Shown: piece by piece, positions 4,613 to 54,038 of the stretch
Position numbering within the stretch: the first letter of the stretch is position 1
Layout of the letters: every line of letters begins with the position of its first letter
DNA from: a virus
Length of the DNA stretch: 64,000 nt
Virus record (IMG/VR): IMGVR_UViG_3300030329_003597
Location: 2,676 to 66,675 of that record
Strand: one strand, 5' to 3'
Translations under genes and position numbers: made by a program
The notes under the pieces: generated by a model
What the model was told of the DNA's origin: nothing
What the model saw: the letters and a program-made list of their open reading frames with translations, nothing else
Database searches by the model: none

Positions 4613-5494
4613 ATGGCGACTCCTATCAAAAAAGACCCACCTGAAGAAGAGGGAATAGATATATTACAAGCACTTGCTAATATATATAATTGGAAAGAGA
4701 ATTTAGCTGAGAATATTAACCCAAGAGGTTATGATATGGACCTCGATGATGATGCTCCTGGGTACGATGACCCTATTTTAGGTAATCACCCATTACAGAG
4801 ATTATACAACGCTATTGTTTTAGATCGAAAAGAACCTCTAAGAGAAAAGGAAGAAGAATTTATACAGCTTGCTTCTATTTCTGAGGATCCTGATTATAGT
4901 GCTGATGCAATTCTTAATGCAGCTGGAGAAGCAGAAAGACAAGATCTTTTAAGTTTAATGTTGGGTCAAGATCAAAAACATGGTAGTATAGAACCTGCAA
5001 TATACAAGCCTACTAAATCAAAAGATCCTGATGCTGAATACTATCGTTCAAAAGTAACAGAACAACAGATAAAAAATGAACTAATGGACCCATACGTTCC
5101 AAGGTCTTTAAGAGGTAAGATGGGTTATAAGAGTGATAAAGAAGGTACTTACATTGGGAGAGGGGAAGATATTGCTGACCTTCTTATTGACTCGGATATT
5201 TATGGTGACGCTCTAGGAAACTTTATTTTAGATAAAGGAGTAGATGAAAAGGGCCATTATATCAGTTATTATGACATATGGGATGTAAACCCTTTGTCTT
5301 CTGGGGCAACTCAAGGAGATGAAGCATCGATAATGCCAAGAGGGTTAGATGATGTGATACAATCTGCTGTTGGTATTAAACCAGCAGAATTGTATGGTAG
5401 GGTTTATTATGATCCTAAGACTGGACTCCCTATAGAGGAGAAAAAGTATGGGGGTACTGTAAGGCCTCTTAAAAAATACAAAGTCTTAAAATAG
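4613..5494 (+). CDS. hypothetical acidic protein with basic GG tail, putative virion cargo
   Basis: 293 aa; GHYISYYDIWD motif; C-terminal KKYGGTVRPLKK. Confidence 0.8.
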   Translation: MATPIKKDPPEEEGIDILQALANIYNWKENLAENINPRGYDMDLDDDAPGYDDPILGNHPLQRLYNAIVLDRKEPLREKEEEFIQLASISEDPDYSADAILNAAGEAERQDLLSLMLGQDQKHGSIEPAIYKPTKSKDPDAEYYRSKVTEQQIKNELMDPYVPRSLRGKMGYKSDKEGTYIGRGEDIADLLIDSDIYGDALGNFILDKGVDEKGHYISYYDIWDVNPLSSGATQGDEASIMPRGLDDVIQSAVGIKPAELYGRVYYDPKTGLPIEEKKYGGTVRPLKKYKVLK

Positions 5495-5502
5495 TATCTT
5501 TG
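5495..5502 (+). promoter_or_regulatory. late promoter -7 box, TATCTTTG
   Basis: Consensus match, 4 nt before ATG 5507. Confidence 0.7.
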
Positions 5503-5506
5503 TTTT

Positions 5507-6919
5507 ATGGCAAGATCTAGGTTTAGAGAAGAGAAGATTAGAATCCTTATGAATGAGGGTTATCCGTTTAAACAAGCGGTAGCTATTGCCTATGATAAAG
5601 AAAAGAAAGGTGATGAGGGATTAACTACTGATCCTACCGATCCAAAGAAATCGGGAACCGCATCAGACAGTCTAAACGTAGCGTCTCTTAAATCTGGCAT
5701 TGCTCAAGTAGAAAGTGGGGGAGGCCAAGAGATATTTATGATAAATCCTGATCCTAACAGTACAGCTACTGGATTATATGGTCAAAGATTTAGCGAAATA
5801 GAAGATGAGTATGAGGGTAGTAGAACACAATTCTCTACAGACATACAAGCTCAAGAAGAATTTATGGATAAGAGAATAGAGGAGGGTATTAACGCACCTT
5901 CTTTAAGGCGTAATGCAATAGATCTTACTGCAGAATATAAAGATCAATTAGGTGATAAGTGGGATTATACTCAAAACGAGGTTGCTGCGTTGAGCCATTT
6001 CTTAGGGAGGCAAGGGACTAGAGAATATTTCGCAGCTATTCGTGATGGAAAGGATTTTGTAGTTCCAGGAACTAATAAAAGCCCTGAAGAGTATCTAGAA
6101 ACTTTTAATGAGGGGGAAGCAAAGATTAAAATGAGGGGTGGTATTGTAAGGCCTATTAAAAGAGGGGATAATGGTGTAACTACGGGAGAGGAAACTGAAG
6201 ATCCAAAAGACGATGATGTATACTCTGTAACTCATGAAGATATATATAATTATTTAGCTAGCAAAGATGTAAACCTTAAAGGGAGAGAAATAGCTAAAAC
6301 TAGAATTATGCCTGGAAGAGGAGAATATTTCCATTATGCAGATGCTCCAGGAGAAGAACATGATACCTTATTGGGTGTAAAGATGGGTAGAGGCGCAGAA
6401 GACACTAAAGATGGAGGATTTAGACAGCATCCTCTTATGATACATTCTAGTAGAGCTGGAGATGAAGATGTAAGGTTAGAAGAAGATATACATTCTATAC
6501 AACCTAAAGTAGGAACGCTTATTAAAGGTATGGGGGGTATAAAAAGGAAGTTAGCTAGAATGTTAAATAAGCAATACTTTACTTTCGACGAAGGTGTTGG
6601 AAATGAAAAATTTCAAGCTTTAAGCGATCAGGAAAAATCAGACCTATATAAAAGGGAGATGGTGGAAAAAAATTATGCTCTTAAAGGTGCTGGTAGTTCT
6701 ACTGAATTTGAGGCAAAACTGATTTCTGATAAAATGCAAATGATTGATCAAGGAGTTATAAATCCTAGCGGTAGAGTAACAAAAGATGATCTTCAGGCAA
6801 TACAACAATGGTATGAAAAGCAAAATCCACATGCCGCTTTCTTAAATCCATTATTTAAAAATATCGATGACTCCCCTAGATATACTAAAATTCTTCTTCA
6901 AGCTCTTAATAAAGCATAA
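5507..6919 (+). CDS. two-domain protein: lytic transglycosylase/lysozyme-like domain plus a degenerate zincin-like domain
   Basis: IAQVESGG...NP..STATGLYGQ resembles SLT motifs I and II; later EEDIHSIQ...EFEAKL. Confidence 0.6.
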   Translation: MARSRFREEKIRILMNEGYPFKQAVAIAYDKEKKGDEGLTTDPTDPKKSGTASDSLNVASLKSGIAQVESGGGQEIFMINPDPNSTATGLYGQRFSEIEDEYEGSRTQFSTDIQAQEEFMDKRIEEGINAPSLRRNAIDLTAEYKDQLGDKWDYTQNEVAALSHFLGRQGTREYFAAIRDGKDFVVPGTNKSPEEYLETFNEGEAKIKMRGGIVRPIKRGDNGVTTGEETEDPKDDDVYSVTHEDIYNYLASKDVNLKGREIAKTRIMPGRGEYFHYADAPGEEHDTLLGVKMGRGAEDTKDGGFRQHPLMIHSSRAGDEDVRLEEDIHSIQPKVGTLIKGMGGIKRKLARMLNKQYFTFDEGVGNEKFQALSDQEKSDLYKREMVEKNYALKGAGSSTEFEAKLISDKMQMIDQGVINPSGRVTKDDLQAIQQWYEKQNPHAAFLNPLFKNIDDSPRYTKILLQALNKA

Positions 6920-6931
6920 TAGATAATAACT

Positions 6932-6939
6932 TATATTTG
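6932..6939 (+). promoter_or_regulatory. late promoter -7 box, TATATTTG
   Basis: Intergenic consensus match upstream of 6952. Confidence 0.65.
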
Positions 6940-6951
6940 TAAAAATATCAC

Positions 6952-7380
6952 ATGGCAACACTAACGGTAACAATTAAAGAAGAATTAATCCTTAATGGGA
7001 AAGATGTAGGGTGTACTAATGTTGCTACTTATGGTGCTACTGAAGTTTATCACCGTATAGCAACTATAACAAATACTGAAAAAAGTATATTGTTATTTGG
7101 AGCTGCCGTAGAGGGTGGGACTATTAAAGATGCTCAACTTGATTACCTAAGGATTACAAACTTAGATTCGTCTGCTAATATAAAGCTTAGGATAAGAAAT
7201 GCTTCAGAGGAGTTTATGGTTCAGGTAGATCCTTTAGGTTCTTTCATCTTAACAGAAGATAAGTTAGATGCTGATGCTACAGGAAGTGATGAGACTATTT
7301 CATTAGCTCAAATAGACAGTATAAAAGCTGTTTCTGGAACTAGTAGTTCATTAATAGAAATATTTGCAGCGTCAGCATAA
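6952..7380 (+). CDS. putative virion structural protein, beta-rich
   Basis: 142 aa; MATLTVTIKE start and YLRITNLD motif, similar in style to the 20550-22560 family. Confidence 0.65.
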   Translation: MATLTVTIKEELILNGKDVGCTNVATYGATEVYHRIATITNTEKSILLFGAAVEGGTIKDAQLDYLRITNLDSSANIKLRIRNASEEFMVQVDPLGSFILTEDKLDADATGSDETISLAQIDSIKAVSGTSSSLIEIFAASA

Positions 7381-7994
7381 TGAAAGCCGTAAAAGCAAAT
7401 AAATATCAAGGGCTTTTAGATATACCTAAAATGGATGCAGGGGGGCAAACGAATCCTGTACATAAAGGTAGCAGAAGTGTAAGTAGAAAAAAGTTAAAAG
7501 AAATTGAAGAGAGGCAGATAGCTCCTATTGAAGCTCTATTAAGACGTATAGCTATGAGGCAGGAACTAAAAGAAGGTGAAAGTGAAGGAGATGCATTTAG
7601 CTCTGAAAGTGTAGATTTTGGTAGCGGATCAGAGGGAGAATCTTGTAGAGAGGTAGATGGAAAGATAGTTTGTGGGGCTTACGGTTACGATCAAGGAGAT
7701 GCAGCAGATTCAGCGGCAGGAGAAGATCGTGAGAAAAAACCTCTTTCTCTTGTGTTAGCGGATTTAATAAAAGAAGGGAGAGATGTAAGACAATCGAGCC
7801 TTAAGAAGAGATTGAAAAAGGTTGGTAAAAGAAGGGAGCTTGATTTAGATCCTTCTAGGTCTGAACAGAAATTAATAAGAAACCCACTTGCTAGGGCTAG
7901 GTATAAATCCTTACAAAGGAGACTAGCTAGATCTGAAGGAAGAGAAAAAGCAGGGGAAGATGGTGGATACCAGGTAATAAAGGCTTCTTTCTAA
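7380..7994 (+). CDS. hypothetical charged protein, putative cargo
   Basis: 204 aa; KMDAGG motif; C-terminal QVIKASF. Confidence 0.7.
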   Translation: MKAVKANKYQGLLDIPKMDAGGQTNPVHKGSRSVSRKKLKEIEERQIAPIEALLRRIAMRQELKEGESEGDAFSSESVDFGSGSEGESCREVDGKIVCGAYGYDQGDAADSAAGEDREKKPLSLVLADLIKEGRDVRQSSLKKRLKKVGKRRELDLDPSRSEQKLIRNPLARARYKSLQRRLARSEGREKAGEDGGYQVIKASF

Positions 7995-8126
7995 TTGAAT
8001 AAATATTACTTTAATCCTATAAGAAAAAGAAAAGATCCAGCAATAGAAGCTGAACGTATAAGACTAAACAAATTAAAAAATGAAACTCGAAGTAATAAGA
8101 TTCAACAAAGGGGAAGATTCAACTAA
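7995..8126 (+). CDS. possible small basic protein, 43 aa, TTG start
   Basis: Hand-translated MNKYYFNPIRKRKDPAIEAERIRL...; overlaps the next gene. Confidence 0.35.
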   Translation: MNKYYFNPIRKRKDPAIEAERIRLNKLKNETRSNKIQQRGRFN

Positions 8127-8604
8127 CGGGATATTATTTGATGTAACAGATGAAAGAAAATTTTTATGCTATACTCTCGAAGATGAGAGCCGTGAAGAAA
8201 AAGTTTACGGAGAGACTTGTATACCTGAAGGAGAGTATAAAGTCAAATTTAGAAATGAAGGCGGATACCACGCCAAATACTCTAAAAGATTTGCTGATAT
8301 ACATATGGGTATGCTTGAAGTGTGTGATGTCCCTAATTTTAAATATATCCTTCTTCATTGTGGTAATACTGATGAGGACACTGCGGGATGTTTATTATTG
8401 GGTGATACGCAAGAAAACAACAACATCAAAAAAAACGGTTTCATCGGCAGGTCGACGCAAGCGTATACAAGGGTCTACCCGAAAATCGCCAAAGCGCTCA
8501 AAGAAAAAGAAGAAGTAACTATTACATATAGAGACTTCTCTGAGTGTTTATTATTAACCCCTCTAGATGTAGCTACATTTGTAGGGGCTTCACAACCGCA
8601 TTAA
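8080..8604 (+). CDS. DUF5675-family protein, candidate cell-wall enzyme
   Basis: Motifs CYTLED, TCIPEGEY, VPNFKYILLHCGNT..DTAGCLLLG. Confidence 0.8.
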   Translation: MKLEVIRFNKGEDSTNGILFDVTDERKFLCYTLEDESREEKVYGETCIPEGEYKVKFRNEGGYHAKYSKRFADIHMGMLEVCDVPNFKYILLHCGNTDEDTAGCLLLGDTQENNNIKKNGFIGRSTQAYTRVYPKIAKALKEKEEVTITYRDFSECLLLTPLDVATFVGASQPH

Positions 8605-8606
8605 TT

Positions 8607-8966
8607 ATGTATACATATAATATAGAAGTTCTTAGAGTTATCGATGGGGACACAATAGATGCTAGTATAGATTTAGGTTTTGACGTAAAAATTAAGAAGC
8701 GTATAAGATTCATGGGTATTAATACTCCAGAGTCTAGAACACGAGATCTTGAAGAAAAGAAACGAGGGTTAGCAGCTAAACAAAGAGTTGCTGAACTTTT
8801 AGATACAGCTACAGAAGTGCAAGTTATATCGCACGGTGTAGGAAAGTTTGGGAGATGTTTAGGGGAAATAGATTTTTGCTGCCCAGATTCTTTAACAATG
8901 AAGAATCTAAATAAACAGCTAATAGAAGAAGGCCACGCTGTAGAGTATCACGGAGGTAAAAGATAA
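8607..8966 (+). CDS. thermonuclease (SNase-like) family protein
   Basis: RVIDGDTID, RIRFMGINTPE, GKFGRCLG motifs; likely true start MYTY at 8607. Confidence 0.85.
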   Translation: MYTYNIEVLRVIDGDTIDASIDLGFDVKIKKRIRFMGINTPESRTRDLEEKKRGLAAKQRVAELLDTATEVQVISHGVGKFGRCLGEIDFCCPDSLTMKNLNKQLIEEGHAVEYHGGKR

Positions 8967-9389
8967 TTACTTCTCTAAATCATTATAAAATCTTTGTACA
9001 AGCAGTCTAGCTTTTTGAGTTATGGCATATCTAACCCTATAGTTATATTTAGTTTCGTCTCTAAATAGATGATCTTCATATGTGTCTGATGGTGTTAATT
9101 TATCAAAGTGCTTGTATATATATCCAGCCTTAACTAAAGGCCATACGTATCTTTTCCCTATATTAGATTTACTGGTTTGAAAGTCTTTACTAGCGTAGTC
9201 TAATGTAAAGAATTGTAAATCGTACCCCCATAGAAGAAACTCAAGCTTAGAAAAGTCCATACCTAACTTTTCAGCATATTCATTCTTGATAACTTTTAAG
9301 TTTTTAAGATAGTTTTTTTTGATGTATATTCTATCTTGTTTAGCGAAGTCTCGAAATAGGCGCTCTTTAGGGATTCTACTTTTAGGCAT
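8967..9389 (-). CDS. putative winged-helix (MarR-like) regulator
   Basis: LEFLLW...PLVKAGYI...YAITQKARLLV pattern; the only convincing reverse gene in the late arm. Confidence 0.6.
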   Translation of the reverse strand: MPKSRIPKERLFRDFAKQDRIYIKKNYLKNLKVIKNEYAEKLGMDFSKLEFLLWGYDLQFFTLDYASKDFQTSKSNIGKRYVWPLVKAGYIYKHFDKLTPSDTYEDHLFRDETKYNYRVRYAITQKARLLVQRFYNDLEK

Positions 9390-9419
9390 TTGTATTAAAT
9401 TTGTATTAAAGCAAAACTA
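9388..9419. promoter_or_regulatory. overlapping divergent control region with a tandem 11-bp repeat
   Basis: ATTTGTATTAA twice (9388-9409); plus-strand TAAATTTG 9396-9403; minus-strand TAGTTTTG 9412-9419. Confidence 0.55.
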
Positions 9420-9736
9420 TGACAAAAGATTTCGAATTCTTACTTCACATGCAAAGGCTTATGTTTGAGGCAGAAGCTCTAGCAATACAATTTGGAGTTA
9501 AGGATAGGTTTTTATCTATTATGGTTGCTGGGTTACTACCTAAAGAAGATGAACTCCTTGATTCTGATACCCCAAGACTTAAAGCGATATATAGCTATAA
9601 TATAGATGATCTTAATGAATTAGATGAAGTACAAGAATTTATATATCACACGTACTACGAACCAGATAAAGAAGAATTAGATCAAAGAGATATAAATAAT
9701 TTATTAGGGGGTACTGGAATAGAATTAGAAGATTAA
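9419..9736 (+). CDS. hypothetical acidic protein
   Basis: 105 aa ORF. Confidence 0.75.
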   Translation: MTKDFEFLLHMQRLMFEAEALAIQFGVKDRFLSIMVAGLLPKEDELLDSDTPRLKAIYSYNIDDLNELDEVQEFIYHTYYEPDKEELDQRDINNLLGGTGIELED

Positions 9737-9741
9737 ATAAA

Positions 9742-9981
9742 ATGGAAGGGATTATTAGAAAAATTATTATCGGGAAAGACCCGAAGGACGCTATGGCGTA
9801 TTATATTGGCATGAGAGCTGGCACGGGAATAGTTAGTACTATAGTGCAGGATGAAGGATATTTGCATAGATATGGTAAAAATAGATATTTAGTATATTTA
9901 GAAGATGCAGATAAATCTCAAACTTTATGGAAAGCTATTGACAATATGCCTTGCATGTTGGAATTTGATTGTAATTTTTAA
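9742..9981 (+). CDS. hypothetical phage protein (IRKIIIGKDPKDAMAY motif)
   Basis: 79 aa; packed in the operon upstream of GroES-like and terminase. Confidence 0.8.
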   Translation: MEGIIRKIIIGKDPKDAMAYYIGMRAGTGIVSTIVQDEGYLHRYGKNRYLVYLEDADKSQTLWKAIDNMPCMLEFDCNF

Positions 9982-10259
9982 TGGTTAGAACAGAGCAATA
10001 TACTTCAGGAGGTGAATTTAAACTTCCAGATGGAACTAATTATGTGGGTGCTTATCACGTACATATAACTAAAGGCGCTATGGTGGGAGCCTATCACAAA
10101 GACACTCCTCACGATAGATTAATCCCATTGGATAGACAGTCTGAATTACTTCTTGAATCTATAATAAATCAGTTAAATCTACAGCAATCTACGCCTGCTC
10201 GTAGATCCACAGCTACTAGCAGTAGACCTACAAGAAGGTCAAGTGGCGGCGGTTATTAA
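9981..10259 (+). CDS. hypothetical protein (YVGAYHVH motif)
   Basis: 92 aa; TAATG coupling. Confidence 0.75.
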   Translation: MVRTEQYTSGGEFKLPDGTNYVGAYHVHITKGAMVGAYHKDTPHDRLIPLDRQSELLLESIINQLNLQQSTPARRSTATSSRPTRRSSGGGY

Positions 10260-10263
10260 TAAT

Positions 10264-10407
10264 ATGAAACCTACTAAAAGTAAAGGTCTTGGCGATACAA
10301 TAGCTAAGATTACAAAAGCTACAGGTCTTAATAAATTAGCACCCAAAGATTGTGGGTGTAAAAAACGACAATCTAAATTAAATAAAATATTTCCTTATAA
10401 AAAATGA
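10264..10407 (+). CDS. small basic protein with CGC motif, 47 aa (MKPTKSKGLGDTIAKITKATG...DCGCKKRQSKLNKIFPYKK)
   Basis: Hand-translated; ATGA overlap with 10404. Confidence 0.8.
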   Translation: MKPTKSKGLGDTIAKITKATGLNKLAPKDCGCKKRQSKLNKIFPYKK

Positions 10408-11000
10408 AAACTTTACATTTGTTTGTTGTCGAATTAGAAAAAACGATCAACGACACTATTAAAACCGATTCTGGTTTAGAGCTTTATGTAGACAATAGAT
10501 TTAACGAGTTTGAACATAGAGTTACTGAAGGGCCAGTAGTATGCGCCCCACGTAAATATAATACAGGAGTTAAAGAAGGCGATACTTTGTATTTTCACCA
10601 TTTAGTTGTGATTAATGAGGGTCAAGCATTAACTGGGCATGATAATCATTATTTAATAAAATATGATGATAAGCATACTATAAATAATCAGGCTATCGCA
10701 TATAAATGTCAAGACACTGGAGAAATAAAGCCTTTAGCAGGTTGGTCTTTGTTAAAGCCAGTAGAGCAAGAAGCTGAAGTAGTTTCTGGTATTATAGAAG
10801 TAATAAATACAGAAGATGAAAAGTTACCCACTAGGGGTGAAGTAGCTTTTGATGCGCCCTGGTTAGAAGAGCTGGGTGTAAAAAAGGGGGATATAGTGGG
10901 TTTTAAAAAGAATAGAGATTATCGTATAAAAATAGATGATCAAGAGTATTACCGTACTCGTGCAGAAGATTTAATGTATATAATTGAGGAAAATGTTTGA
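10404..11000 (+). CDS. GroES-like co-chaperonin with two tandem domains
   Basis: Two copies of G.V..P..GVK.GD...F; second begins IKPLAGWSLLKP. Confidence 0.7.
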   Translation: MKTLHLFVVELEKTINDTIKTDSGLELYVDNRFNEFEHRVTEGPVVCAPRKYNTGVKEGDTLYFHHLVVINEGQALTGHDNHYLIKYDDKHTINNQAIAYKCQDTGEIKPLAGWSLLKPVEQEAEVVSGIIEVINTEDEKLPTRGEVAFDAPWLEELGVKKGDIVGFKKNRDYRIKIDDQEYYRTRAEDLMYIIEENV

Positions 11001-11253
11001 TAAAGAAGAATTGTGGTTACATTTAGAGGATTACGGATGCTTACTTGCTGATGGATTTGATGATGCCATTATAGGCGTAACCTTTGGAGTAGAACCAAAA
11101 GCTGTATATAGTATATCAAAATGTTTAGATATACTTTTAGAAGAAGGTATGAGTATGGAAGATGCTATCGAACATCTTGAATACAATGTGGCTGGGAGTC
11201 ATGTAGGAGAAAAAACACCTATATGGGTGTATGATTATCAAGAAGATGAGTAA
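10984..11253 (+). CDS. hypothetical phage protein (LADGFDDAIIG motif)
   Basis: 89 aa; start may be the ATG at 10993. Confidence 0.75.
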   Translation: MRKMFDKEELWLHLEDYGCLLADGFDDAIIGVTFGVEPKAVYSISKCLDILLEEGMSMEDAIEHLEYNVAGSHVGEKTPIWVYDYQEDE

Positions 11254-11530
11254 ATTTACTACTGTATCAGCCTCAGAGCGTCTTATGAAAAGTATGGAGG
11301 TGGCTATTAATAATATGATAGAAGAGGTGAAAAAGCCTGTTGATCCAGAGATCAACGGTAGCGCTAGAAAAGCAGAACTTCAATCTATTAAACAGACAGC
11401 TACTGACTGTAAAGAGCTTATAATAGAAAGACAAAGGTTGGAGCAGATGGTTAAAGATCTTAAAACTAGCGGGCAGATAGACGAAGCTAAAGATTATACT
11501 GGAGGATTTGCTGAAAGGTTTTCTAAATAA
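11231..11530 (+). CDS. possible terminase small subunit
   Basis: Helical 99 aa protein upstream of TerL, ending GFAERFSK; positional inference. Confidence 0.45.
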   Translation: MIIKKMSKFTTVSASERLMKSMEVAINNMIEEVKKPVDPEINGSARKAELQSIKQTATDCKELIIERQRLEQMVKDLKTSGQIDEAKDYTGGFAERFSK

Positions 11531-11877
11531 TGGCTTATAAAAATAAAGAAGATCAAGCTGCAGCCTCTAAACGGCATTATGAGAATAATAAAGAGAAGGT
11601 AAAAGCTAGGTCTAAAAAAAGAAATATTAGACAAAGAGATATAAATAGAAAATACGTAGAGGATATAAAAAAGAAATCCAGCTGTATAGATTGCGGTGAA
11701 TCAAATCATCTTGTTTTAGATTTCGATCATATAGGAGGTGATAAATATAAATGTATATCTAATATGGTTTACGAATCTTACAGTATAGAAACAATACAAA
11801 AAGAAATAGATAAATGTGAAGTTAGATGTTCTAACTGTCATAGAATAATTACATATAATAGAAGAAATGAAAAATAA
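11530..11877 (+). CDS. HNH endonuclease-like protein
   Basis: CIDCG...LDFDH...KCEVRCSNCH. Confidence 0.8.
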   Translation: MAYKNKEDQAAASKRHYENNKEKVKARSKKRNIRQRDINRKYVEDIKKKSSCIDCGESNHLVLDFDHIGGDKYKCISNMVYESYSIETIQKEIDKCEVRCSNCHRIITYNRRNEK

Positions 11878-14402: not shown

Positions 14403-14407
14403 TTCCT

Positions 14408-14415
14408 TATATTTG
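14408..14415 (+). promoter_or_regulatory. late promoter -7 box, TATATTTG
   Basis: Intergenic consensus match before portal. Confidence 0.65.
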
Positions 14416-37960: not shown

Positions 37961-39340
37961 ATGATAGGTTGGGCAGCTTTAGCGGGTCAATTAATTGGCG
38001 CTGGAATAAACTATTTTGGCGGTCAGTCACAAGCTGCAGATGCTGAAAAAATGTACCAGCGTGGTAGACAAGATCTATTAGCGGCATCAAGACCTACTCA
38101 GGCTTTACTTGATTCAGTAGCTGAAGGTAAATCTATGGCTGCTGAAGCTGGGAGAACAGGGAGAGAGCAGTTAGATTCATCAGTATCTTCATTATTAGAT
38201 GCCCTTCAATCAGGAGATCAATCAGCAATTGCTTCATTTCAATCTGCAATGCCTAATATAGCACAAACATCGCAGGGTCTAGAGATGACTACAGCGCAGA
38301 ATATTGCTACAGCAAATCAACCTCTTGTTGATGCTGAACAAAAAGTACGTGATACTTACTCTGCTTTAGCTCAAATGGATATAGAGCAAGGAGCGGCAGG
38401 ATATCAAGCTGGAACTCAAAGACAAATGGATGCGATAGGTTCTGCTGTAAATATGCCTATGGATTTAGCTGCTTTACAGGTTTCTAATCCTTCTGGTTAT
38501 TCACAGCTATTTGGGAAAGATGGTGTAAAAATAGACAGAGCAGACAGAGGGGCTTTGATAAATGAAGATGTTATTAAGGAATTGATTGGGGGTGGGTTAG
38601 TTTATACTGGAACTGGCGCAGAGGTGACTTCTTTTAGGGATATCATAGAGAAAGAAGCGGCTAAAAAAAGCGGAGAGGAAGAAGAAGAGGAAGAAGAGGT
38701 AGTAGAAGAAGGGAAAGAAGAACAACAATCTACACCTCATTCAGAAAGAATGAAACAAGTTAAAGAAACGGAGGGAGAGAGGAAAATAAGTGAACAGATA
38801 GAAAGAGAAAGAAGACAAGGTAAAGGTGTGACAGGTAGGGACGGTATTAAAATAGAAGATTACAATAGGGGCGGTGCTACAGATAAGCCTACGAGTAAAG
38901 AACTTAAAGGTGATATAGAACTACTAAAACTACAACTAGAAAAAGAAAAAGTTCAAAAAGAGCTTAGTTCTTATGCTATGGGTGGTAAAATAGAAGATTA
39001 CATGAGTGGAGGTAGTACTTTATCTCAGCTTCTTCGTCCTGGTCAAAGCTTTAAAACAGGAGGTAAAGAAGATCATGATGTACAAGAGTACGATATATCA
39101 GATGCTGAAACAGGTGAAGTTGTTGCTAAAACCACTGGACAAGAAGATCATATGGTGAATGAAGATGGATCTCTTACTGTAATAAATAGTGAGCAGAACG
39201 AGTCTATCCATGATGCCTTTAAGGACATAGATGTAGAAATGGTTCTTAAAGCCTTAGAGAGGAACCCGCAAAAGAAAAACGTCAGGGAATTACTTTCAGC
39301 CCTTAATAAAGTCTTTAGACAAGAACAATTTCAGTCGTAA
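37961..39340 (+). CDS. putative ejection/internal virion protein 1
   Basis: Gly/Ala-rich amphipathic N-terminus; helical A/Q-rich body; repeated GG motifs. Confidence 0.65.
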   Translation: MIGWAALAGQLIGAGINYFGGQSQAADAEKMYQRGRQDLLAASRPTQALLDSVAEGKSMAAEAGRTGREQLDSSVSSLLDALQSGDQSAIASFQSAMPNIAQTSQGLEMTTAQNIATANQPLVDAEQKVRDTYSALAQMDIEQGAAGYQAGTQRQMDAIGSAVNMPMDLAALQVSNPSGYSQLFGKDGVKIDRADRGALINEDVIKELIGGGLVYTGTGAEVTSFRDIIEKEAAKKSGEEEEEEEEVVEEGKEEQQSTPHSERMKQVKETEGERKISEQIERERRQGKGVTGRDGIKIEDYNRGGATDKPTSKELKGDIELLKLQLEKEKVQKELSSYAMGGKIEDYMSGGSTLSQLLRPGQSFKTGGKEDHDVQEYDISDAETGEVVAKTTGQEDHMVNEDGSLTVINSEQNESIHDAFKDIDVEMVLKALERNPQKKNVRELLSALNKVFRQEQFQS

Positions 39341-47020: not shown

Positions 47021-49236
47021 TGATTCGCAAGCTACTGACAATCACTCTATTAGCCTTACTTACTTTAAGTAATGCTTTTGCTCAACCAGATGATGCTAGT
47101 TGGGTAAATGTAACAATACAGACAGACAACTATGGTGGTGAATCATCGTGGGAGATCTTAAATAATGATAATATAGCAGTAGCAGTTAGTCCACCACTTC
47201 AAAACAATACTCTCGTTAACACAATGGTTTTTTTACCTGCTGGTGAGTATGTATTTGTTATGTATGATTCGTTTGGTGACGGTATATGCTGTTCCTTTGG
47301 GCAAGGCTTCTTTGGGTTAACAAACACTTGTGGGTTAGAAGAATTTAACTATGAATTTGATTCAGCTATAGATAGTATACCATTTGTATTAGAACCTTGT
47401 TTACCAGTATTGCTTGGCTGCATGAACGAAGCTGCGGACAACTACAACCCATGGGCTAATCAAGATGACGGTAGTTGTGAAATCGTTGATTGCGACTCTC
47501 TCGAAACTCAAGTGTCTATGGAGTTAACGCTCGATACATGGCCTGGTGAAACTGGATTTACATTAGTTAATATAGCTAATGGTCAACCGTATGAACAGGT
47601 TATACCTGGTGAGTTTGATTTTGGTGATCAGCTCATTACATACACCTATAACTTTTGTGTGTCGCTAGGTTTTGAATTAATATTGGTGGACGAATATGGT
47701 GACGGATTAAACGGCTCTACTTCAGGAGGAGAAGATGGGGCTTGTGTTATAACTGCCTGTGATAGTGTTATATGGGAGTTAGAAGATTTAGCTTTCACAG
47801 AGTTCGATGATGGTAATACGATGTATTCTGGCGCTATTTTTACAGAGCCTTGTCCACCTGTACCTCCTATAGTGGGGTGTATGGATGATGATTATGTAGA
47901 CTATAACCCTGATGCAACAGCTCAAGACACCTGTATGACATTACACACATGGGGTTGCACAGATCCAGAAGCCATGAATTACGATAGTACTGCAACAATA
48001 GACGACCTAAATAGTCCTTGTAGTATACAGATTATTCTAGAAGATGATGCTGGTGATGGATGGGGCATGTCTGGGATAGGTATGAAGCAAGGTGATCAAC
48101 AATGGTTATTTACTGTAGGTCCTGGCGTATTTTTAGAGTCGTGGGATATTATGCTTGATTCAGACGAGGAGGTGGATATATATTATTTCCAAGATGGAGG
48201 TCAACAATCATCTGCTCAAGAGTTAGCATTCCAAACATTGCATAACTCTGTATATGCAATTAATCAAGCTGGGGATACTTTATTATCTGAAGGTTCTAAT
48301 CCATTCTTAAATAATGGTCAAAGCGCTTTACAACCATTTAGCGCACCAGAATGGAAAGTGTATCATTTCACTCCGTATTGTGGAGATAGCTGCATACCTT
48401 ATATATACGGCTGCACAGATGATACTGCTTGTAACTACGATGCTGAAGCTAATACAAATGTTGATTGCAACTATCCAGTACAGTATTACGACTGCAATAA
48501 CAGCTGTGTTAATGATTATGATGGAGACGGAGTGTGCGATGAGTTAGAGGTAGTAGGTTGTCAAGATCCGACTGCATTTAACTATAACTCAGCAGCTACA
48601 GATCCTGGAGAGTGTATCCCAGTGATATTTGGCTGTACTGATCCTACTCAGTTTAACTACAACCCAGATGCTAACACAGAAAACGGAAATTGTATACCTT
48701 TTATATACGGTTGTATGAATCCAGATGCATTTAACTACAATCCAGATGCCAACACAGAACTTGAAGACTCTTGCATTGAAGTAGTGGTTGATTGCATGGA
48801 CCCTAACGCATTTAATTATAACGAATTAGCCAACACTCCTGATGAAGAAGCTTGCCTATATGATGCTGGATGTATTACAGGGCCTGGTAATCCGTATTGG
48901 TACAACGATGGGTGCTATGCATGGATTATAGATATTGATCCATACTGTTGTGAAGTAGGTTGGGATGATACATGTGCAGAGTTATACTCATATTGCGAGC
49001 AAGGTTGGCCACAAGGTGTATATGATATACATGATGTATATAATGTATATCCTAATCCTGTGGATGATATACTTTACATTCAATCTCCAATAAATACAGA
49101 AGCTATTATATATAATTCTTTAGGGCAGATTGTTGTATCTTCTACTAAGGAAAAAAGAATTGACATGACTCATTTACCCAATGGTATATACAATGTTGTC
49201 ATTAATCATATAAATAAAATAATAATTAAATCATGA
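47020..49236 (+). CDS. secreted Cys-rich repeat protein with T9SS type A C-terminal sorting domain
   Basis: Sec signal peptide; about eight GC(T/M)DPxAxNY repeats; C-terminal VYPNPV...YNSLGQ...LPNGIY...KIIIK. Confidence 0.88.
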   Translation: MIRKLLTITLLALLTLSNAFAQPDDASWVNVTIQTDNYGGESSWEILNNDNIAVAVSPPLQNNTLVNTMVFLPAGEYVFVMYDSFGDGICCSFGQGFFGLTNTCGLEEFNYEFDSAIDSIPFVLEPCLPVLLGCMNEAADNYNPWANQDDGSCEIVDCDSLETQVSMELTLDTWPGETGFTLVNIANGQPYEQVIPGEFDFGDQLITYTYNFCVSLGFELILVDEYGDGLNGSTSGGEDGACVITACDSVIWELEDLAFTEFDDGNTMYSGAIFTEPCPPVPPIVGCMDDDYVDYNPDATAQDTCMTLHTWGCTDPEAMNYDSTATIDDLNSPCSIQIILEDDAGDGWGMSGIGMKQGDQQWLFTVGPGVFLESWDIMLDSDEEVDIYYFQDGGQQSSAQELAFQTLHNSVYAINQAGDTLLSEGSNPFLNNGQSALQPFSAPEWKVYHFTPYCGDSCIPYIYGCTDDTACNYDAEANTNVDCNYPVQYYDCNNSCVNDYDGDGVCDELEVVGCQDPTAFNYNSAATDPGECIPVIFGCTDPTQFNYNPDANTENGNCIPFIYGCMNPDAFNYNPDANTELEDSCIEVVVDCMDPNAFNYNELANTPDEEACLYDAGCITGPGNPYWYNDGCYAWIIDIDPYCCEVGWDDTCAELYSYCEQGWPQGVYDIHDVYNVYPNPVDDILYIQSPINTEAIIYNSLGQIVVSSTKEKRIDMTHLPNGIYNVVINHINKIIIKS

Positions 49237-49615: not shown

Positions 49616-50685
49616 TGGTAGAACGAAAGGATCTTACTCCAGTTGTATATGCTCTAATAATGCTAGGGGTGTTTCTTCTTGCATCATTTACAGCCAATGG
49701 ACAAACTCTAAAAAAGACGTTTAAGTTTGCTACATTCTATACTGCCTTCAGTGGTGGTAACTCCATAGCTGATGATAACATATACTCTGTAACTAATGGG
49801 TTACAGACTGATGTATTAGAAACTCCTTTCGATTATTCGTTTACAGCTGGTGTTCGTAAGATTGCTAGGTTTGGGTATGAGAACCGAGCTAATGTATTCT
49901 ATGATGGAACAGAGAAGTCTTATAGCGATGCTGCTACCATTGGTAAAGTAAAAGGGTTTGAATTCTTATTTGAAGCTGACTGGCGTAGACAACAAGGCAG
50001 AAACTTTATTGATCAGGATTATTTCTTACGTTATGTAGCTAAAAACTGGATAGCTAAGGTTGAATATCTACAAGATGGGTTTGCCGATGTTGAGTATTTT
50101 GAGGGATCCCAAAGGCTTCGACTCAATGCTAATGATAAACTTAGCTTTAATATTGGGGTGGCTCAACGTATATCTGAACCATATGGGTATAATCCTTTAG
50201 AAGAATGGGTGTTGTCAAATAATAACATACACTATACAAGTCTTGCTATACAAGAGGGGTATACTGTAGATGTACAAGCTGGTGAATATTTCTCTCCAGA
50301 CGGTGAGCTTGTAGCTAATAGTGTTGATGTATGGGAGCAGGTTGTTATACCTGAAGTTATTGATGATTATGTTGCTAGAAAAAGAAATGAACTACCTAAT
50401 GTATGGAACTATTCTGTAGTTGTTGGGTATGATTACTATAAGTATTCTAAAGAATTTTGGATGCACAATTGGGTAAGTGTAATGCCTTATCATCTTAAGA
50501 CAGATGACGAGTATTCTTACTTTGAAACCACCGAAGGGGGGCAATGGCTAGATTACGGCGCAGGCCTTATCTTTGGGTGGAGATTAAACAAGAGTCTTGG
50601 TGTGTTTTTAGAGGGAAAATACAATAAGTATTGGAATCGAGAATGGCATGACTTCTCAGTTGGATTAAATTACGTAATATTATAA
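49612..50685 (+). CDS. putative outer-membrane beta-barrel protein
   Basis: Signal peptide ending ANG; alternating aromatic beta strands; terminal strand FSVGLNYVIL. Confidence 0.7.
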   Translation: MMVERKDLTPVVYALIMLGVFLLASFTANGQTLKKTFKFATFYTAFSGGNSIADDNIYSVTNGLQTDVLETPFDYSFTAGVRKIARFGYENRANVFYDGTEKSYSDAATIGKVKGFEFLFEADWRRQQGRNFIDQDYFLRYVAKNWIAKVEYLQDGFADVEYFEGSQRLRLNANDKLSFNIGVAQRISEPYGYNPLEEWVLSNNNIHYTSLAIQEGYTVDVQAGEYFSPDGELVANSVDVWEQVVIPEVIDDYVARKRNELPNVWNYSVVVGYDYYKYSKEFWMHNWVSVMPYHLKTDDEYSYFETTEGGQWLDYGAGLIFGWRLNKSLGVFLEGKYNKYWNREWHDFSVGLNYVIL

Positions 50686-50687
50686 AA

Positions 50688-50972
50688 ATGGCAAAGCAGA
50701 TTGGAGAGGATACTAAAGTAACATTTGACCTTAAAACAATAGGGTTGGGTGTAGCAGGGCTTGCAGCCTTAATAGGAATGTGGTTTACGCTACAAGCTGA
50801 TATAGCAGAAGCAAAAGAGTTGCCAGAGCCATTGCCTCCAGACATTACACGTATGGAGTTTGATATGAAGGACCAGCTAGTACGTCAAACAATTATGACA
50901 ACTCAAGAAGATGTATCAGAACTTAAAGAAGATCTAGATCGTATTGAGGAAAAAATAGATAAACTACAGTAA
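50688..50972 (+). CDS. single-pass membrane protein with coiled coil
   Basis: Transmembrane IGLGVAGLAALIGMWF, Pro-rich linker, C-terminal heptads. Confidence 0.75.
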   Translation: MAKQIGEDTKVTFDLKTIGLGVAGLAALIGMWFTLQADIAEAKELPEPLPPDITRMEFDMKDQLVRQTIMTTQEDVSELKEDLDRIEEKIDKLQ

Positions 50973-50974
50973 TT

Positions 50975-51370
50975 ATGAAGCCATTAAAAAGAAAAAAACT
51001 TACAGAAGAAAAAAACGTGCCAATAGGCATTACTGAATTTAAGAAAGGTGATAAAACAACTGAGTATGTGAAGAGTGTTCAACCTGGTAAAGTCCTTAAA
51101 AAGAAATATAAAAAAGGCAAACCAGCAAAATCAAAATATATATCAGAAAAGAAAGCTGAACGTCAGATAAAGCGTAAAAGAAGAAGAGCAGCAAAAGATG
51201 AGTACGGGGGAAGACATTATAGGCTCAGGAAAAAAGCAAAGAAGTTAGAGGATAAGGCTATGAACTTCCCTGGCGAAAAACAAGTATCTAAGAAAAGGTC
51301 TGAGAAACTAATGACAAAAGCTCAAACAAAACGTCAAAAAGCTAGGGATATTAGGGCAAAGAAAAGTTAA
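50975..51370 (+). CDS. highly basic protein
   Basis: 131 aa, very K/R-rich; contains EYGG. Confidence 0.65.
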   Translation: MKPLKRKKLTEEKNVPIGITEFKKGDKTTEYVKSVQPGKVLKKKYKKGKPAKSKYISEKKAERQIKRKRRRAAKDEYGGRHYRLRKKAKKLEDKAMNFPGEKQVSKKRSEKLMTKAQTKRQKARDIRAKKS

Positions 51371-51382: not shown

Positions 51383-51721
51383 ATGAAACATTTAATCTAC
51401 ATATGTTTATTTGCAATGACATCTCTTGGTATGACTATACCAGATTCAGGAGTATGCGTCGTTGAGTTTAACGCAAGTTTTAACTCAGCAAATAGTGTTG
51501 ATTGGATTGATGAGTTGAGTGATTGTAAAGGGAAGAGGGTGGATATTGTTGCTAGCCCTGAATTACAAAAAGAACATAAAATTGTAGTAGTACCTACTGT
51601 TATCGTGTTTAACGATGGGGAAGAGGTGGAGAGATTTCAAGCAAACATCATGATGCAGCTTGAAGCAACGAAAGATGAGGTTCAGGAAGCGGTTGATGAA
51701 ATTATAATGAGTGCATTCTAA
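51383..51721 (+). CDS. exported thioredoxin-fold protein lacking CxxC
   Basis: VVEFNASFNSAN in place of VDFxAxWCxxC; VVPTVIVFNDGEEVERF; N-terminal signal. Confidence 0.75.
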   Translation: MKHLIYICLFAMTSLGMTIPDSGVCVVEFNASFNSANSVDWIDELSDCKGKRVDIVASPELQKEHKIVVVPTVIVFNDGEEVERFQANIMMQLEATKDEVQEAVDEIIMSAF

Positions 51722-52074
51722 TGAGGGCAATTAAAGGAAGAAATCCTGAGCTGATAAGTCAAGCTGATATAGACAAAATTAAAGGGTGGAGGACATCTCA
51801 TAGAGACAATCCAGGTGGTGGTCGTTCTACTCATCTTATGGCTAGTTCAGATAATTTAGTTTTCCCTACGTTATTTCAGGAGGATGATGGATCGTGGACA
51901 GAGTATGAAAAAGATGAATGGAGAGAGGCTCTTGAAAGGGCTAAAAGAGAAGGTACGGTTCATAAAGCAGCAAACCCACAAGCTGCTAATCTTATAGCTG
52001 AGGGAGCATGGAAAGGACTACATACTGAAGGCGGATTAATGGATGTTTTAAGTGAATGGGGTAGAAACAGATGA
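51721..52074 (+). CDS. hypothetical protein, putative cargo
   Basis: 117 aa; STHLMA...VFPTLF...AEGAWK. Confidence 0.7.
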   Translation: MRAIKGRNPELISQADIDKIKGWRTSHRDNPGGGRSTHLMASSDNLVFPTLFQEDDGSWTEYEKDEWREALERAKREGTVHKAANPQAANLIAEGAWKGLHTEGGLMDVLSEWGRNR

Positions 52075-54038
52075 ACACGGTTAAGAAAAAAAAAGGCACT
52101 AGAGTTAGGAAGCTAGCTAATGGAGGTAACGGGAATGGCAACGGCGATCCAGTAAAAGAAACTACAGCAACACCCCCTCAAATTATTTATGCTGATTATG
52201 ACGAAGATGTTATAGTTCCAGAAGGTGCTACAGTAGTTCGAACAAACAAACCTCCTGAACCAGGATCTTTTGAGAGTGTATTAAATGATCCATACCTAAC
52301 ACAATATGGTGGCTCAAATTACCAAAGCACACCTTTGGTTGATCTTACTCTTGCTCTTGGCGCATACGGTTTAGGAAGTGCCTTGCCAGCGATTGGAGAA
52401 GGTTTGGCAGCAAGTTGGAGAGGATTAACTGGGGTTGGAGAGAGTGTGTATAGCACTCTTAGTGGGCCTTTTAGTACGGTATTTAGATCACCTTTAGTAA
52501 ACCCAGTAACAGGGAATCCTGTAGCTGGCGGTGCAATAACTGGGGAAGGTTTAATTAACTCATACTTCGCAGCACACGGGGCTATGAACTTGCCTGGGGA
52601 TATAAAGGCCTTTATTGATGACCCTTCATGGGAGGCTGCAGGCGATATTGGGATAGATGTACTTGAGATGCTTCCTGTTGCTATAGACTACTTCCTGCCA
52701 AAATTCTATAGTGCTGTAAAAAATACAGTATCCGCCGAGTCTAAAACCGCTACCGCTGAAACACCCGTAATATCTCTTGAGTCTTCTACTACAGGTGCAA
52801 GGGGAACAGATGCGGTTTTAAATGCTTTAAGAGAACAGGAGTTAAAAAGAATATATACCTCTCATTTCGCTGATCAAGTAAAAGGTGTAAAAGCAAGAGG
52901 TGCTGCAGGTATATTAACTGAAGCAGAAGTTGAGGCAGAAATAGCTACAGTTCTTGCATATCAAAACGAATATCTATCTCACCCAAGATTTTTACAAAAA
53001 TTAGAAGAGGCACAAAAGATTGCGGAGCTTCAAACTCAAGTTATACCTGGAACAAAAATACTCACCCCTCAAGCTAATGCTGCTATAGCTGAGTTTGGGG
53101 GCGTTAGTAAGTTTGGCTTTATGGGTGAGGTAAAAGTTGCAGAAGGTGTTTATGAATGGCAATTAATCCCCTTTGCTGACGCAAAAACTACAGCATTTAA
53201 AATGGTTGAGGAAATGCAGAAGGGTGATGATGTTTTGAGAAATGCAATAGGTAGAGCTAAAGATGAAATATTTACAACTTATATAGATCCAGCAACAGGT
53301 GTATTACAAAAACAAGAAGCAAGAGGTCTGTACACAGCAGGAGGGGAAGCAGTTCAAGGTGAGGGTATGGCTTTTGATGCTGCTGAAATAGCGTATCTAA
53401 ACACACTAAGCCCAGAAGACCTTCTTAAGGTTTTAGCTCACGAAGATAATCACGCTAGATTAATACCATTTTTAGAGTTCACCTTAAATACTTATAACAC
53501 AAGAAGGTTTACTTATTTAGATGATATTTATATCCCACCTGGTGGTAGAGCTGCTACAGACGGTTCTATTAAACCAGGAACGGAGTTGTTTAAAATCTTT
53601 ATGAACCCAAGAATAGGTCTTTCTGAAAGAAATTTAACATACCTGGCGGATGAGGCAGAGTTAGCTGCAAGAATGGGGGAGATAAAAATTAATTGGTGGG
53701 AACAGCAAATGAAAGCTGGGGAAGCTGGATTGTCTATGGATGAGTGGATGTACAATTGGACTCCAGACATGGCTAGGAAAGCATATGAATTGTGGGATCC
53801 AACGGGTGGACATTCACTATGGTTGGTTATTAAAGGAGCTAATGAAAAAGAAAAGTTTCAAAATATAACAAATCTTCTTAATAATTTACTTACACCTTCT
53901 GTGCCCATAGCTGTTGCTGGTGGTATAGGTGTAGCAGCTACGTCTACTGAGGCTGCTATAGAAGAAGCCCCCACGAGTAACAAACGTGGAGGCTTCATAT
54001 CAAAGAAAAAAAGACGTAAAGGCTATAGATTAATTTAA
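52071..54038 (+). CDS. putative virion cargo protein with zincin metallopeptidase motif
   Basis: AHEDNH (HExxH) plus downstream YL...E..AR; GG tags at both termini. Confidence 0.65.
   Translation: MNTVKKKKGTRVRKLANGGNGNGNGDPVKETTATPPQIIYADYDEDVIVPEGATVVRTNKPPEPGSFESVLNDPYLTQYGGSNYQSTPLVDLTLALGAYGLGSALPAIGEGLAASWRGLTGVGESVYSTLSGPFSTVFRSPLVNPVTGNPVAGGAITGEGLINSYFAAHGAMNLPGDIKAFIDDPSWEAAGDIGIDVLEMLPVAIDYFLPKFYSAVKNTVSAESKTATAETPVISLESSTTGARGTDAVLNALREQELKRIYTSHFADQVKGVKARGAAGILTEAEVEAEIATVLAYQNEYLSHPRFLQKLEEAQKIAELQTQVIPGTKILTPQANAAIAEFGGVSKFGFMGEVKVAEGVYEWQLIPFADAKTTAFKMVEEMQKGDDVLRNAIGRAKDEIFTTYIDPATGVLQKQEARGLYTAGGEAVQGEGMAFDAAEIAYLNTLSPEDLLKVLAHEDNHARLIPFLEFTLNTYNTRRFTYLDDIYIPPGGRAATDGSIKPGTELFKIFMNPRIGLSERNLTYLADEAELAARMGEIKINWWEQQMKAGEAGLSMDEWMYNWTPDMARKAYELWDPTGGHSLWLVIKGANEKEKFQNITNLLNNLLTPSVPIAVAGGIGVAATSTEAAIEEAPTSNKRGGFISKKKRRKGYRLI

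Follow-up and report, generated by a model that had tools for sequence, protein, structure and literature searches.

Conserved Gly-Gly peptides at the borders of exchangeable modules in candidate cargo proteins of a phage

The manner in which tailed phages choose the proteins that are packed and injected is known for only a few models, among them the targeting sequence of T4, the core proteins of P22 and T7 and the cargo protein C1 of crAss001. The presence of the last of these, gp45, in virions was established by mass spectrometry, and the crAss001 structure resolves its residues 214-245 within the tail barrel and 425-552 on the portal (PMC10172136). Polyvalent proteins are strings of unrelated enzyme domains (lysozyme/SLT, zincin MPTase, ART and others) that are encoded beside virion genes and whose delivery together with the DNA has been predicted (Iyer et al. 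2017, PMC5512222). The capsid targeting sequence of T4 is a short terminal peptide that directs diverse injected proteins to the prohead core and by which foreign proteins can also be loaded (PMC3012670). In the current analysis we have studied short peptides with Gly-Gly (GG) and basic residues, referred to here as tags, in the late proteins of a window of 64,000 bases (positions 2,676 to 66,675 of the IMG/VR record IMGVR_UViG_3300030329_003597, a single viral contig of 66,675 bases). An earlier note on this DNA had proposed that such tags form a packaging or maturation code shared by a modular family of capsid cargo proteins. The reading that we favour, with a probability of roughly 0.55, is that the tags are conserved boundary peptides of exchangeable cassettes in a polyvalent and virion-cargo repertoire, where they would have an address or docking role. 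Proteins are named after the first position of their genes in the window.

Tag conservation and domain borders in the window proteins

Solid tags are found in four proteins, 4613, 5507, 52071 and, at its N-terminus, 7380, and all the peptides that had been quoted from these proteins and from 37961 and 50975 are indeed encoded there. All the tagged genes lie within a rightward late block (4172-54038) that encodes the terminase, the portal, capsid-type and adaptor-type structural proteins and tail proteins, together with a 2032-residue protein and a 1737-residue protein (41373) with an LPD38 domain.

Protein 52071 (52071..54038, + strand) is a zincin of 655 residues with an HExxH motif (HEDNH, residues 457-461; 53439-53453, +) and is tagged at both ends, by MNTVKKKKGTRVRKLANGGNGNGNGDPVKE at residues 1-30 (52071-52160, +) and by NKRGGFISKKKRRKGYRLI at residues 630-655 (53958-54035, +). 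Ten metagenomic homologues with identity down to 26% have been identified, and the zincin motif recognised earlier is confirmed by the invariance of H457, E458 and H461 in 11 of 11 sequences of the family. Both tags are invariant or nearly so across these 11 sequences, the ends of which can be written as KKGKKGxRVKKLANGG(NG)nGDPVKE and PTxNKRGGFISRKKRRKGYRxI. The identity of seven distant homologues to 52071 is 0.65 over residues 1-30 and 0.84 over residues 630-655, and 0.33 elsewhere; in this set no other 26-residue window of the protein is as well conserved as the C-terminal tag, and the tail is conserved to its last residue, 14 residues past GG. A mere linker would decay as a free end, and as the free ends of 52071 are the best conserved part of the family, something must recognise them; the free-standing tags are therefore considered to be more than linkers. 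The protein has no Pfam match, a sequence search of the PDB gave nothing below E 0.05, and its AlphaFold2 (AF2) model, with a mean confidence (pLDDT) of 42.5, is too poor for a fold search. A complex prediction for the portal (19-row alignment) with the tail of 52071 (residues 596-655) gave a score of 0.00, which weighs neither way.

Protein 5507 (5507..6919, +) is a four-part protein of 470 residues. The AF2 model, built from a 30-row alignment and with a mean pLDDT of 70.9, predicts a helical hairpin at residues 1-30 (5507-5596, +; phrog_2423 on residues 7-34), followed by a linker at residues 31-52 (5597-5662, +) that contains KKGDEGLTTDPTDPKK (residues 33-48), a lytic-transglycosylase-like domain at residues 53-213 (5663-6145, +), a linker with the GG tag at residues 207-241 (6125-6229, +; KIKMRGGIVRPIKRGDNGVTTGEETEDPK at residues 207-234) and a C-terminal part at residues 242-470 (+) that is confidently helical only at residues 339-470. 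The pLDDT is below 50 at residues 31-52, 216-241 (PIKRGDNGVTTGEETEDPKDD) and 258-338, and in the model GG211-212 caps the last helix of the transglycosylase domain. Comparison of residues 53-213 of the model by VIA-align gave a Z of 9.8 with Cj0843c (7lam_A; rmsd 3.2, 124 aligned), 9.1 with MltC, 8.7 with phiKZ gp144 and 8.1 with Slt70, and the transglycosylase-like domain proposed for this protein is thus supported as a predicted lytic transglycosylase fold. The sequence QVESGGG also provides the catalytic Glu in the E-S motif that characterises family 1 lytic transglycosylases (SLT). The Pfam SLT model has no match in 5507, and a Foldseek search of the model against the PDB gave nothing at E<=0.001.

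The two stretches of the form K(K/R)GD(E/N)G(L/V)TT..DPK in 5507, which had been compared to a polyprotein layout, both fall in linkers that are predicted to be disordered; since this predicted disorder lies between domains, both stretches are regarded as inter-domain linkers and the comparison appears sound. The solid tags lie at domain borders for which disorder is predicted. At least two unrelated domains are united in the single polypeptide of 5507, as in polyvalent proteins, and 4613 and 52071 are single modules here. The transglycosylase-like module is shared by 49 homologues of 5507 with differing partners, which include a HELxHSxQ zincin, LysM, YkuD, SET, DUF192 and others. A stand-alone module of 117 residues encoded at 51721..52074 (+; NPGGGRSTHLM..FPTLFQ..DGSW) is also seen inside polyvalent homologues of 5507, by a comparison with P0030, P0031 and P0039 made by eye without an alignment score.

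Protein 4613 (4613..5494, +) is a stand-alone module of cargo type with 293 residues. It has an N-terminal half-tag, MATPIKKDPPEEEG (4613-4654, +), and a C-terminal tag of Gly-Gly and basic residues, KKYGGTVRPLKKYKVLK (5438..5491, +; protein end EEKKYGGTVRPLKKYKVLK), which is a copy at the DNA level of the tag in the middle of 5507. The end of 4613 (KKYGGTVRPLKK) and the middle of 5507 (KMRGGIVRPIKR) form the top direct DNA repeat of the region 4100-8100, 5441-5474 and 6128-6161 being 79% identical over 34 nt with identical codons for G, V, R and P (GGT..GTA AGG CCT). At E<=1e-3 the 4613 module has matches in 577 cluster representatives, where it stands by itself or forms part of proteins of up to 1961 residues. 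Among the best 150 of these matches, 143 reach the module end and provide 86 non-redundant contexts; GG is found within -6..+30 of the module end in 54 of the 86, compared with 23% of random windows, and often at a fixed place, DPxTGxPIxxKxxGG. Of the larger proteins with this module, 24 were scanned with Pfam, which assigned ART-PolyVal in 3 and SLT, NlpC/P60, LysM, SET or DUF192 in others. A sequence search of the PDB with the 4613 profile gave nothing below E 0.05, and a protein atlas search retrieved only viral clusters without names.

Protein 7380, a basic protein of 204 residues, begins with the tag MKAVKANKYQGLLDIPKMDAGG (7380..7445, +), with KMDAGG at residues 17-22. The orthologue in the complete sister phage G001 (G1, 60.9 kb) starts with MKTIKANKYQGLLDIPKMDEGG and keeps the N-terminal 22 residues, after which the two proteins diverge (59% identity over the whole protein); no orthologue is present in the second complete sister phage, G002 (G2, 62.4 kb). 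A C-terminus QVIK(T/A)SF shared by 4172 and 7380 was considered as a further tag and rejected, an anchored identity of 6/12 being reached in 28 of 200 shuffles.

Beyond these four proteins the motif is less secure. The 459-residue protein 37961, encoded among tail and internal-protein genes, has a run of [YF]xxGG motifs (YNRGG, YAMGG, YMSGG and FKTGG; 38852..39070, +) within an insertion of repeated KIEDYxxGG units. The EYGG of 50975 (51200..51211, +), a very basic, lysine-rich protein of 131 residues with a pI of 10.7, had also been listed as a tag; it is probably a chance match, and the protein has no BLASTP orthologue in G1 or G2. Small, extremely basic proteins near the end of the late operon differ among the sister phages (50975-51370 in the window, 3292-3633 in G1, 50216-50443 and 50781-51122 in G2). 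The window protein (50975-51370) has a net charge of +36, some of these small proteins carry KKGG or MMGG, and they may be DNA-condensing internal proteins.

Among the late proteins bare GG is not above chance (129 vs 110+-9 in shuffles), the total being 142 across the 82 called open reading frames (ORFs). The motif [YFMW]xxGG is modestly enriched in late proteins (23 vs 13+-3.6, with 9 of 1000 shuffles reaching 23), and DP[PTK] occurs in them 20 times vs 7.2+-2.7 in shuffles. The pattern GGx[VI][KR]Px[KR], picked after the data had been seen, has two occurrences, a number reached in 0 of 1000 shuffles. A lower frequency of the motif in early than in late proteins is not significant (23 late vs 2 early for [YFMW]xxGG, P=0.09). 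The shared tags of the earlier note thus survive as features of a modular family (4613, 5507, 52071 and 7380) and are given up for EYGG and for bare GG, which do not rise above chance. The solid tags differ from bare GG in that they are conserved in relatives, and those of 4613 and 5507 are repeated at the DNA level.

Fusion and fission at the tags and their possible role

Individual modules are met both singly and in fusions, with the joins at the tags, so that the modular nature of the family is upheld. In P0003, a metagenomic protein of 784 residues, MARVKKYQNGG-IGDPTDPKK is followed by a transglycosylase-like module, NYGGYVRPIKKGDNG (GGYVRPIKKG), a 4613-like module, KAGGIVRPIKRGDNG (AGGIVRPIKRGDNG) and the C-terminal part of 5507; by this layout the separate gene 4613 is an internal cassette elsewhere. 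The portal and terminase of G1 and G2 are 86-90% identical to those of the window, and both genomes are syntenic with the window except at the locus 4172-6919, which differs in all three. At this locus only the hairpin, joined to a zincin (276 residues), is present in G1, and small ORFs of no relation are found in G2. The orthologue of 52071 in G2 has 907 residues, its tail (...KRGGYVSKKKKRKGFRS) being followed by ANGDPKK and then by a canonical SLT module; the C-terminal tag of 52071 is therefore an internal joint in a sister phage. To judge from these alignments, the tags coincide with points of fusion and fission between relatives.

The tags extend to module borders in a wider set of homologues. 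GG is present within -8..+30 downstream of the end of the SLT-like module in 20 of 23 non-redundant contexts, and upstream of the transglycosylase-like module in 13 of 25, compared in each case with 30% of random windows. Basic leaders ending in GG are found in the first 30 residues of 45 out of 185 proteins (shuffle mean 9.9, maximum 18), and GG followed by a basic tail in the last 30 residues of 43 out of 193 (shuffle mean 10.7, maximum 18). The sequence comparisons suggest a grammar of module, K-x-x-GG, a short hydrophobic and basic strand, often [KR][YF]QxGG, then (G)DP[PKT] and the next module.

According to the reading favoured here, a cassette would start with a basic leader ending in x-x-GG followed by (G)DP[PKT], and would close with K-x-x-GG and a short strand in which hydrophobic and basic residues alternate. 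In fused cassettes the two halves would form a joint of GG, basic spacer, GG or NG, and DP, and in separate genes (4613, 5507 and 52071) the halves would persist as N- and C-terminal tags. The basic tags may hold the otherwise acidic modules (net charge -20 for 4613, -15 for 5507 and -17 for 52071) to an internal partner in the virion during head assembly, with GG acting as a hinge at the domain edge. Candidate partners are the portal, the DNA or a very acidic scaffold candidate (23127-24314) of 395 residues and net charge -45, encoded upstream of the capsid gene. An electrostatic recruitment to scaffold or portal, and later to DNA, would be plausible. We infer in this way that the tagged proteins are packaged, that the tags dock them and what the partner would be. 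A trimming after GG within the head would be conceivable, the address role and the cutting role not being exclusive.

Proteolytic maturation may also be the primary purpose of the tags, an explanation that we consider possible and clearly less probable than docking. A cut after GG would remove the basic leaders, tails and spacers and free the modules, the basic pieces being address labels only before their removal, and the protease would be a tagged zincin, of the 52071 type or the HELxHSxQ type, or a host enzyme. The symmetry of the grammar fits this explanation, as leaders end in GG, tails begin with GG and joints are often made of GG, a basic spacer and GG. GG-to-GG spacers of 4-14 residues are in excess (103 vs 60.6+-9.1 in shuffles, maximum 92) and basic (K+R content 0.20 vs 0.13). 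Around 707 non-redundant GG sites, taken from homologues not close to the window, position -3 is enriched in Y (2.6x), F (2.3x) and M (2.0x) and position -2 in Q (3.4x); a smaller first set gave Y, F or M at -3 in 55 and Q at -2 in 30 of 118 sites. These preferences resemble those of protease subsites. Zincin modules are frequent among the partners of the cassettes (P0007, P0008, P0023, P0030, P0036, the 276-residue protein of G1 and 52071), and zincin MPTase domains have been proposed to process polyvalent proteins (Iyer et al. 2017, PMC5512222). Homologues of 52071 are present in the three tag-bearing sister phages and have no match by tblastn in cultured phages, including elemo.

Several observations speak against maturation. 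No cut at a tag GG is on record, and no maturation protease other than the tagged zincin itself was found: Pfam scans of 64 ORFs gave no adenain-, ASFV- or C39-type cysteine protease, divergent members of clan CE being liable to escape such scans, and Pfam and PHROG scans of the window gave no prohead protease family, an absence from these libraries that does not exclude one. The second GG of the joint is replaced in the window by EG or NG (KKGDEGL, KRGDNGV), and the conservation of the 52071 tail over the 14 residues past GG exceeds what a leaving group would need. The modelled portal-bound segment of gp45 begins at residue 425 and so includes F426-G427-G428, the protein is treated by its authors as a single chain bridging tail and capsid, and the terms 'cleav' and 'proteoly' have no occurrence in the available text of that paper (PMC10172136).

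The docking reading itself has to be set against a number of results that weigh in the other direction. The tags are optional, as only 8 of 24 stand-alone 4613-like proteins have a GG tag at their end and at least 8 finish directly behind the core domain. The motifs of 37961 are partly kept in G1 (YASGG, DMGG and FKTGG), and none are found at the aligned positions of G2. The homologue sets contain related sequences, their redundancy having been reduced by a crude context filter alone, and the shuffle comparisons consequently overstate independence. A matrix trained solely on the distant homologues finds no excess in the window proteome (7 at score >=2 vs 4.4+-2.0), nor in G1, G2, elemo, T7 or the crAss001 segment, and a proteome-wide code has been dropped on this account. 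Elemo, a cultured relative by its terminase, shows no such tags; as the giant protein 41373 also has no terminal or seam-type tags (one match to a basic-GG regular expression lies at residue 598) and EYGG is probably due to chance, a single code across the whole span was too broad a claim. Searches by tblastn of 50,697 cultured phage records gave no match to 4613, 5507 or 52071. In crAss001 the RNA-polymerase cargo proteins carry few such motifs, and the tag is hence not a general entry ticket.

Repeated DNA at the cassette locus and the surrounding genome

The junctions of the cassette locus are also repeated at the DNA level. The spacer between 4172 and 4613 (4598..4617, +) reads TAG TATCTTTGTCTT ATGGC, with TAnnTTTG placed 4 nt before the ATG, and a second copy lies between 4613 and 5507 (5492..5511, +). 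The unit TAG-TATCTTTGTYTT-ATGGC has two matches in the window, and 0 of 100 shuffles had two. TAnnTTTG, which we take to be the Bacteroidota -7 promoter element, is found within 40 nt upstream of 12 of 53 rightward starts vs 1 of 29 leftward starts. The sites on the + strand are 4160-4167, 4601-4608, 5495-5502, 28882-28889 and eight more, and four copies stand exactly 4 nt before an ATG (starts of 4172, 4613, 5507 and 28894). This spacing would give leaderless or near-leaderless mRNAs.

These repeats could indicate that the tags are flexible linkers and recombination scars, in which the DNA at cassette ends is conserved for module swapping and the peptides have no role in packaging or processing. 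The identity of the 4613 and 5507 tags at synonymous positions, the 20-nt unit of stop, spacer and start at both gene junctions, the variability of the cargo locus among three otherwise syntenic phages and the position of the tags in stretches predicted to be disordered are all in keeping with scars. We nevertheless regard this explanation as unlikely, because the terminal tags of 52071 are conserved at the protein level, far more than the enzyme body, across homologues of 26-43% identity. The same types of tag also occur in gp45 of crAss001, a phage with unrelated structural genes, and the residue preferences span several positions on both sides of GG.

It is very improbable that 4172, 4613 and 5507 are read as one polyprotein through two TAG stops, which would turn their terminal tags into internal joints. 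The three ORFs do share a frame, with TAG, four sense codons (YLCL, YLCF) and ATG at each transition, and TAG ends only 4 of the 82 called ORFs, two of which are these neighbours (4598-4600 and 5492-5494). The in-frame layout, however, follows automatically from one duplicated 12-nt spacer, and the promoter-like TAnnTTTG that precedes each ATG by 4 nt, at 4172 and 28894 too, fits separate expression. The judgement rests mainly on the genome having no tRNA gene, suppressor or other, and no general recoding of TAG, the long late ORFs being intact under the standard code.

Protein 4172 (142 residues) and the 1737-residue LPD38 protein 41373 share their first 12 residues, MDEEEILQY(L/I).D, with 10 of 12 identical. 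At the DNA level 4170-4197 and 41371-41398 have 28 identical nt, beginning 2 nt before the ATG, and the anchored N-terminal identity of 9/12 compares with a maximum of 6 in 200 shuffles. The N-terminus of 41373 is kept in the orthologues of G1 and G2. This common start may reflect either an N-terminal tag that both proteins carry or a junction left by recombination.

Replication and regulation genes run leftward at both ends of the window and encode a sigma-70 factor, a primase-helicase, endonuclease I and a PD-(D/E)XK protein. The sigma-70 family factor (54030-54899, -) is complete, with regions 1.2, 2, 3 and 4; its gene heads the leftward block and directly adjoins the late operon at its end.

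The terminase shares 41-48% identity with its counterparts in Flavobacterium elemo phages and in one uncultured Caudoviricetes record; Cellulophaga podophages are matched as well, at less than 60% identity. Among the 2158 metagenomic homologues of the portal at E<=1e-10, many are marine. From the relationships of terminase and portal to elemo and Cellulophaga podophages, the phage can be placed in an elemo-like podophage lineage and not among the crassviruses. A 738-residue late protein (47020-49236) of net charge -110 has a C-terminal type IX secretion sorting domain (Por_Secre_tail, E 9e-9), which is unusual on a phage protein and points to a Bacteroidota host. On the basis of this domain and of the terminase and portal relatives, a marine bacterium of the Bacteroidota is the probable host, and the tag-bearing repertoire probably belongs to marine phages infecting this group. 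Megablast of 4000-24000 against the cultured phage records gave no match, and a scan of viral contigs with 5507 gave no relative. The 4613 profile found only six loci in prokaryote genomes, all of them in metagenome-assembled genomes (four candidate-phyla-radiation bacteria, one Acholeplasmatales and one Kerfeldbacteria), and these give no host information.

Further genes of the late block have been identified in the course of the analysis. In a protein of 198 residues (10404-11000) the C-terminal half contains a GroES (Cpn10) domain and is preceded by an additional part (phrog_13932); GroES and GroEL genes are also carried by the elemo relatives. Four tandem paralogous small proteins encoded at 20550-22560 all start with MATT(T/I)A, the first two being 66% identical, and fewer copies are present in G1 and in G2. 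The 142-residue protein 6952 of the cargo locus (6952-7380) begins with MATLTVT and resembles them in this respect. Directly after the variable cargo locus, a DUF5675 protein (8080-8604; E 5e-28) is kept in all three sister phages.

Comparison with described cargo systems

Polyvalent proteins and crassvirus cargo proteins are already known; a Gly-Gly boundary grammar and conserved end tags were not found described. No description of a Gly-Gly boundary motif was met in the literature searched, which included the available text of PMC5512222, PMC10172136 and PMC12014285 and left most subscription journals outside. The candidate label is short and defined by sequence, marks the borders of exchangeable effector cassettes, persists as end tags on single-module genes and recurs in an experimentally proven cargo protein from a different phage order. 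Should the label serve for addressing or for cutting, it would become possible to predict cargo and anti-defence effectors straight from metagenomic sequence and to account for the rapid shuffling of cargo genes, and reporters or enzymes could be loaded into phages of Bacteroidota with its help. Inert tags would still be of use for delimiting domains in the many giant phage proteins that lack annotation.

In T4 the targeting label is N-terminal only, has about 10 residues and is cut off at a Glu site by the prohead protease gp21. The window families have shared terminal peptides, with tags that occur at both ends, are basic and are hinged by GG. Adenain and the pS273R protease of African swine fever virus (ASFV), clan CE cysteine proteases of eukaryotic viruses, process virion precursors at Gly-Gly-X; as in the window, a GG-containing consensus lies at the borders of basic, DNA-associated segments of virion precursors. 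One could imagine that phages with unrelated structural genes, crAss-like and elemo-like, whose hosts are or probably are Bacteroidota, share a plug-and-play cargo system in which any enzyme cassette with the basic GG leader and tail is recruited by these peptides to the procapsid and then trimmed or released at GG hinges by a co-packaged zincin, a proposal that we hold to be rather doubtful. Such a system, if real, would be the counterpart in bacterial viruses of the Gly-Gly-X maturation of adenovirus and ASFV, would explain the free exchange of injected effectors and would allow the deliberate loading of foreign proteins.

T7 gp16 (annotation in NC_001604) is an ejected internal podophage protein with a lytic transglycosylase domain, as predicted for 5507. 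T7 differs in that the distant-homologue matrix finds no such tags in its proteins, and 5507 for its part has no sequence match in a cultured phage.

Judged by their domains (ART-PolyVal, SLT, LysM, zincin and crAss_CARG1), the modules appear to belong to the network of polyvalent proteins and crassvirus cargo. With the polyvalent proteins they share the location of the tagged genes among late and virion genes. Of the hallmark polyvalent domains, ART-PolyVal is found in proteins containing the 4613 module and LPD38 in 41373, and none is matched by Pfam in 4613, 5507 or 52071 themselves. Unlike the polyvalent proteins, the repertoire of the window is largely split into single-module genes that keep half-joints. 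The words 'linker' and 'glycine' have no occurrence in the main text, as available, of the paper describing polyvalent proteins (Iyer et al. 2017, PMC5512222).

The closest parallel is gp45 of crAss001. It starts with MAKKKIKRRGKMPPNIFDTGG, a basic leader ending in GG, and ends with GG and a lysine-rich tail (...EYTGGTKKAKGGKVRTKKKKGLTYG), in the manner of the window tags, and its [FY]xGG motifs at 209, 427 and 562 mark the edges of the structured segments 214-245 and 425-552. The portal-binding family crAss_CARG1 to which it belongs is also present in P0036, a homologue of 5507 with the transglycosylase-like module, which aligns to residues 394-487 of gp45 at 33% identity. In the window itself crAss_CARG1 (PF25725) has no match among 40 late proteins at E<=0.01 or among 8 tagged or neighbouring proteins at E<=10. 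The end tags of gp45 and the crAss_CARG1 domain of P0036 would, by analogy, provide the strongest support for a cargo status of the tagged window proteins. Like 5507, if that protein is internal as supposed, gp45 is an internal protein of a short-tailed phage, with a Bacteroidota host as is likely here too. It differs in being one long chain, whereas the window cassettes are mostly separate genes, and in belonging to a crassvirus, whereas the terminase and portal of the window phage are related to those of elemo and Cellulophaga phages; the motif is unmentioned in the available text of the crAss001 paper (PMC10172136). To these systems the window adds a second phage lineage unrelated to the crAss-like phages, half-joints that survive in genes of a single module, fusion and fission seen directly when sister genomes are compared, and the identity of two tags at the DNA level within one genome.

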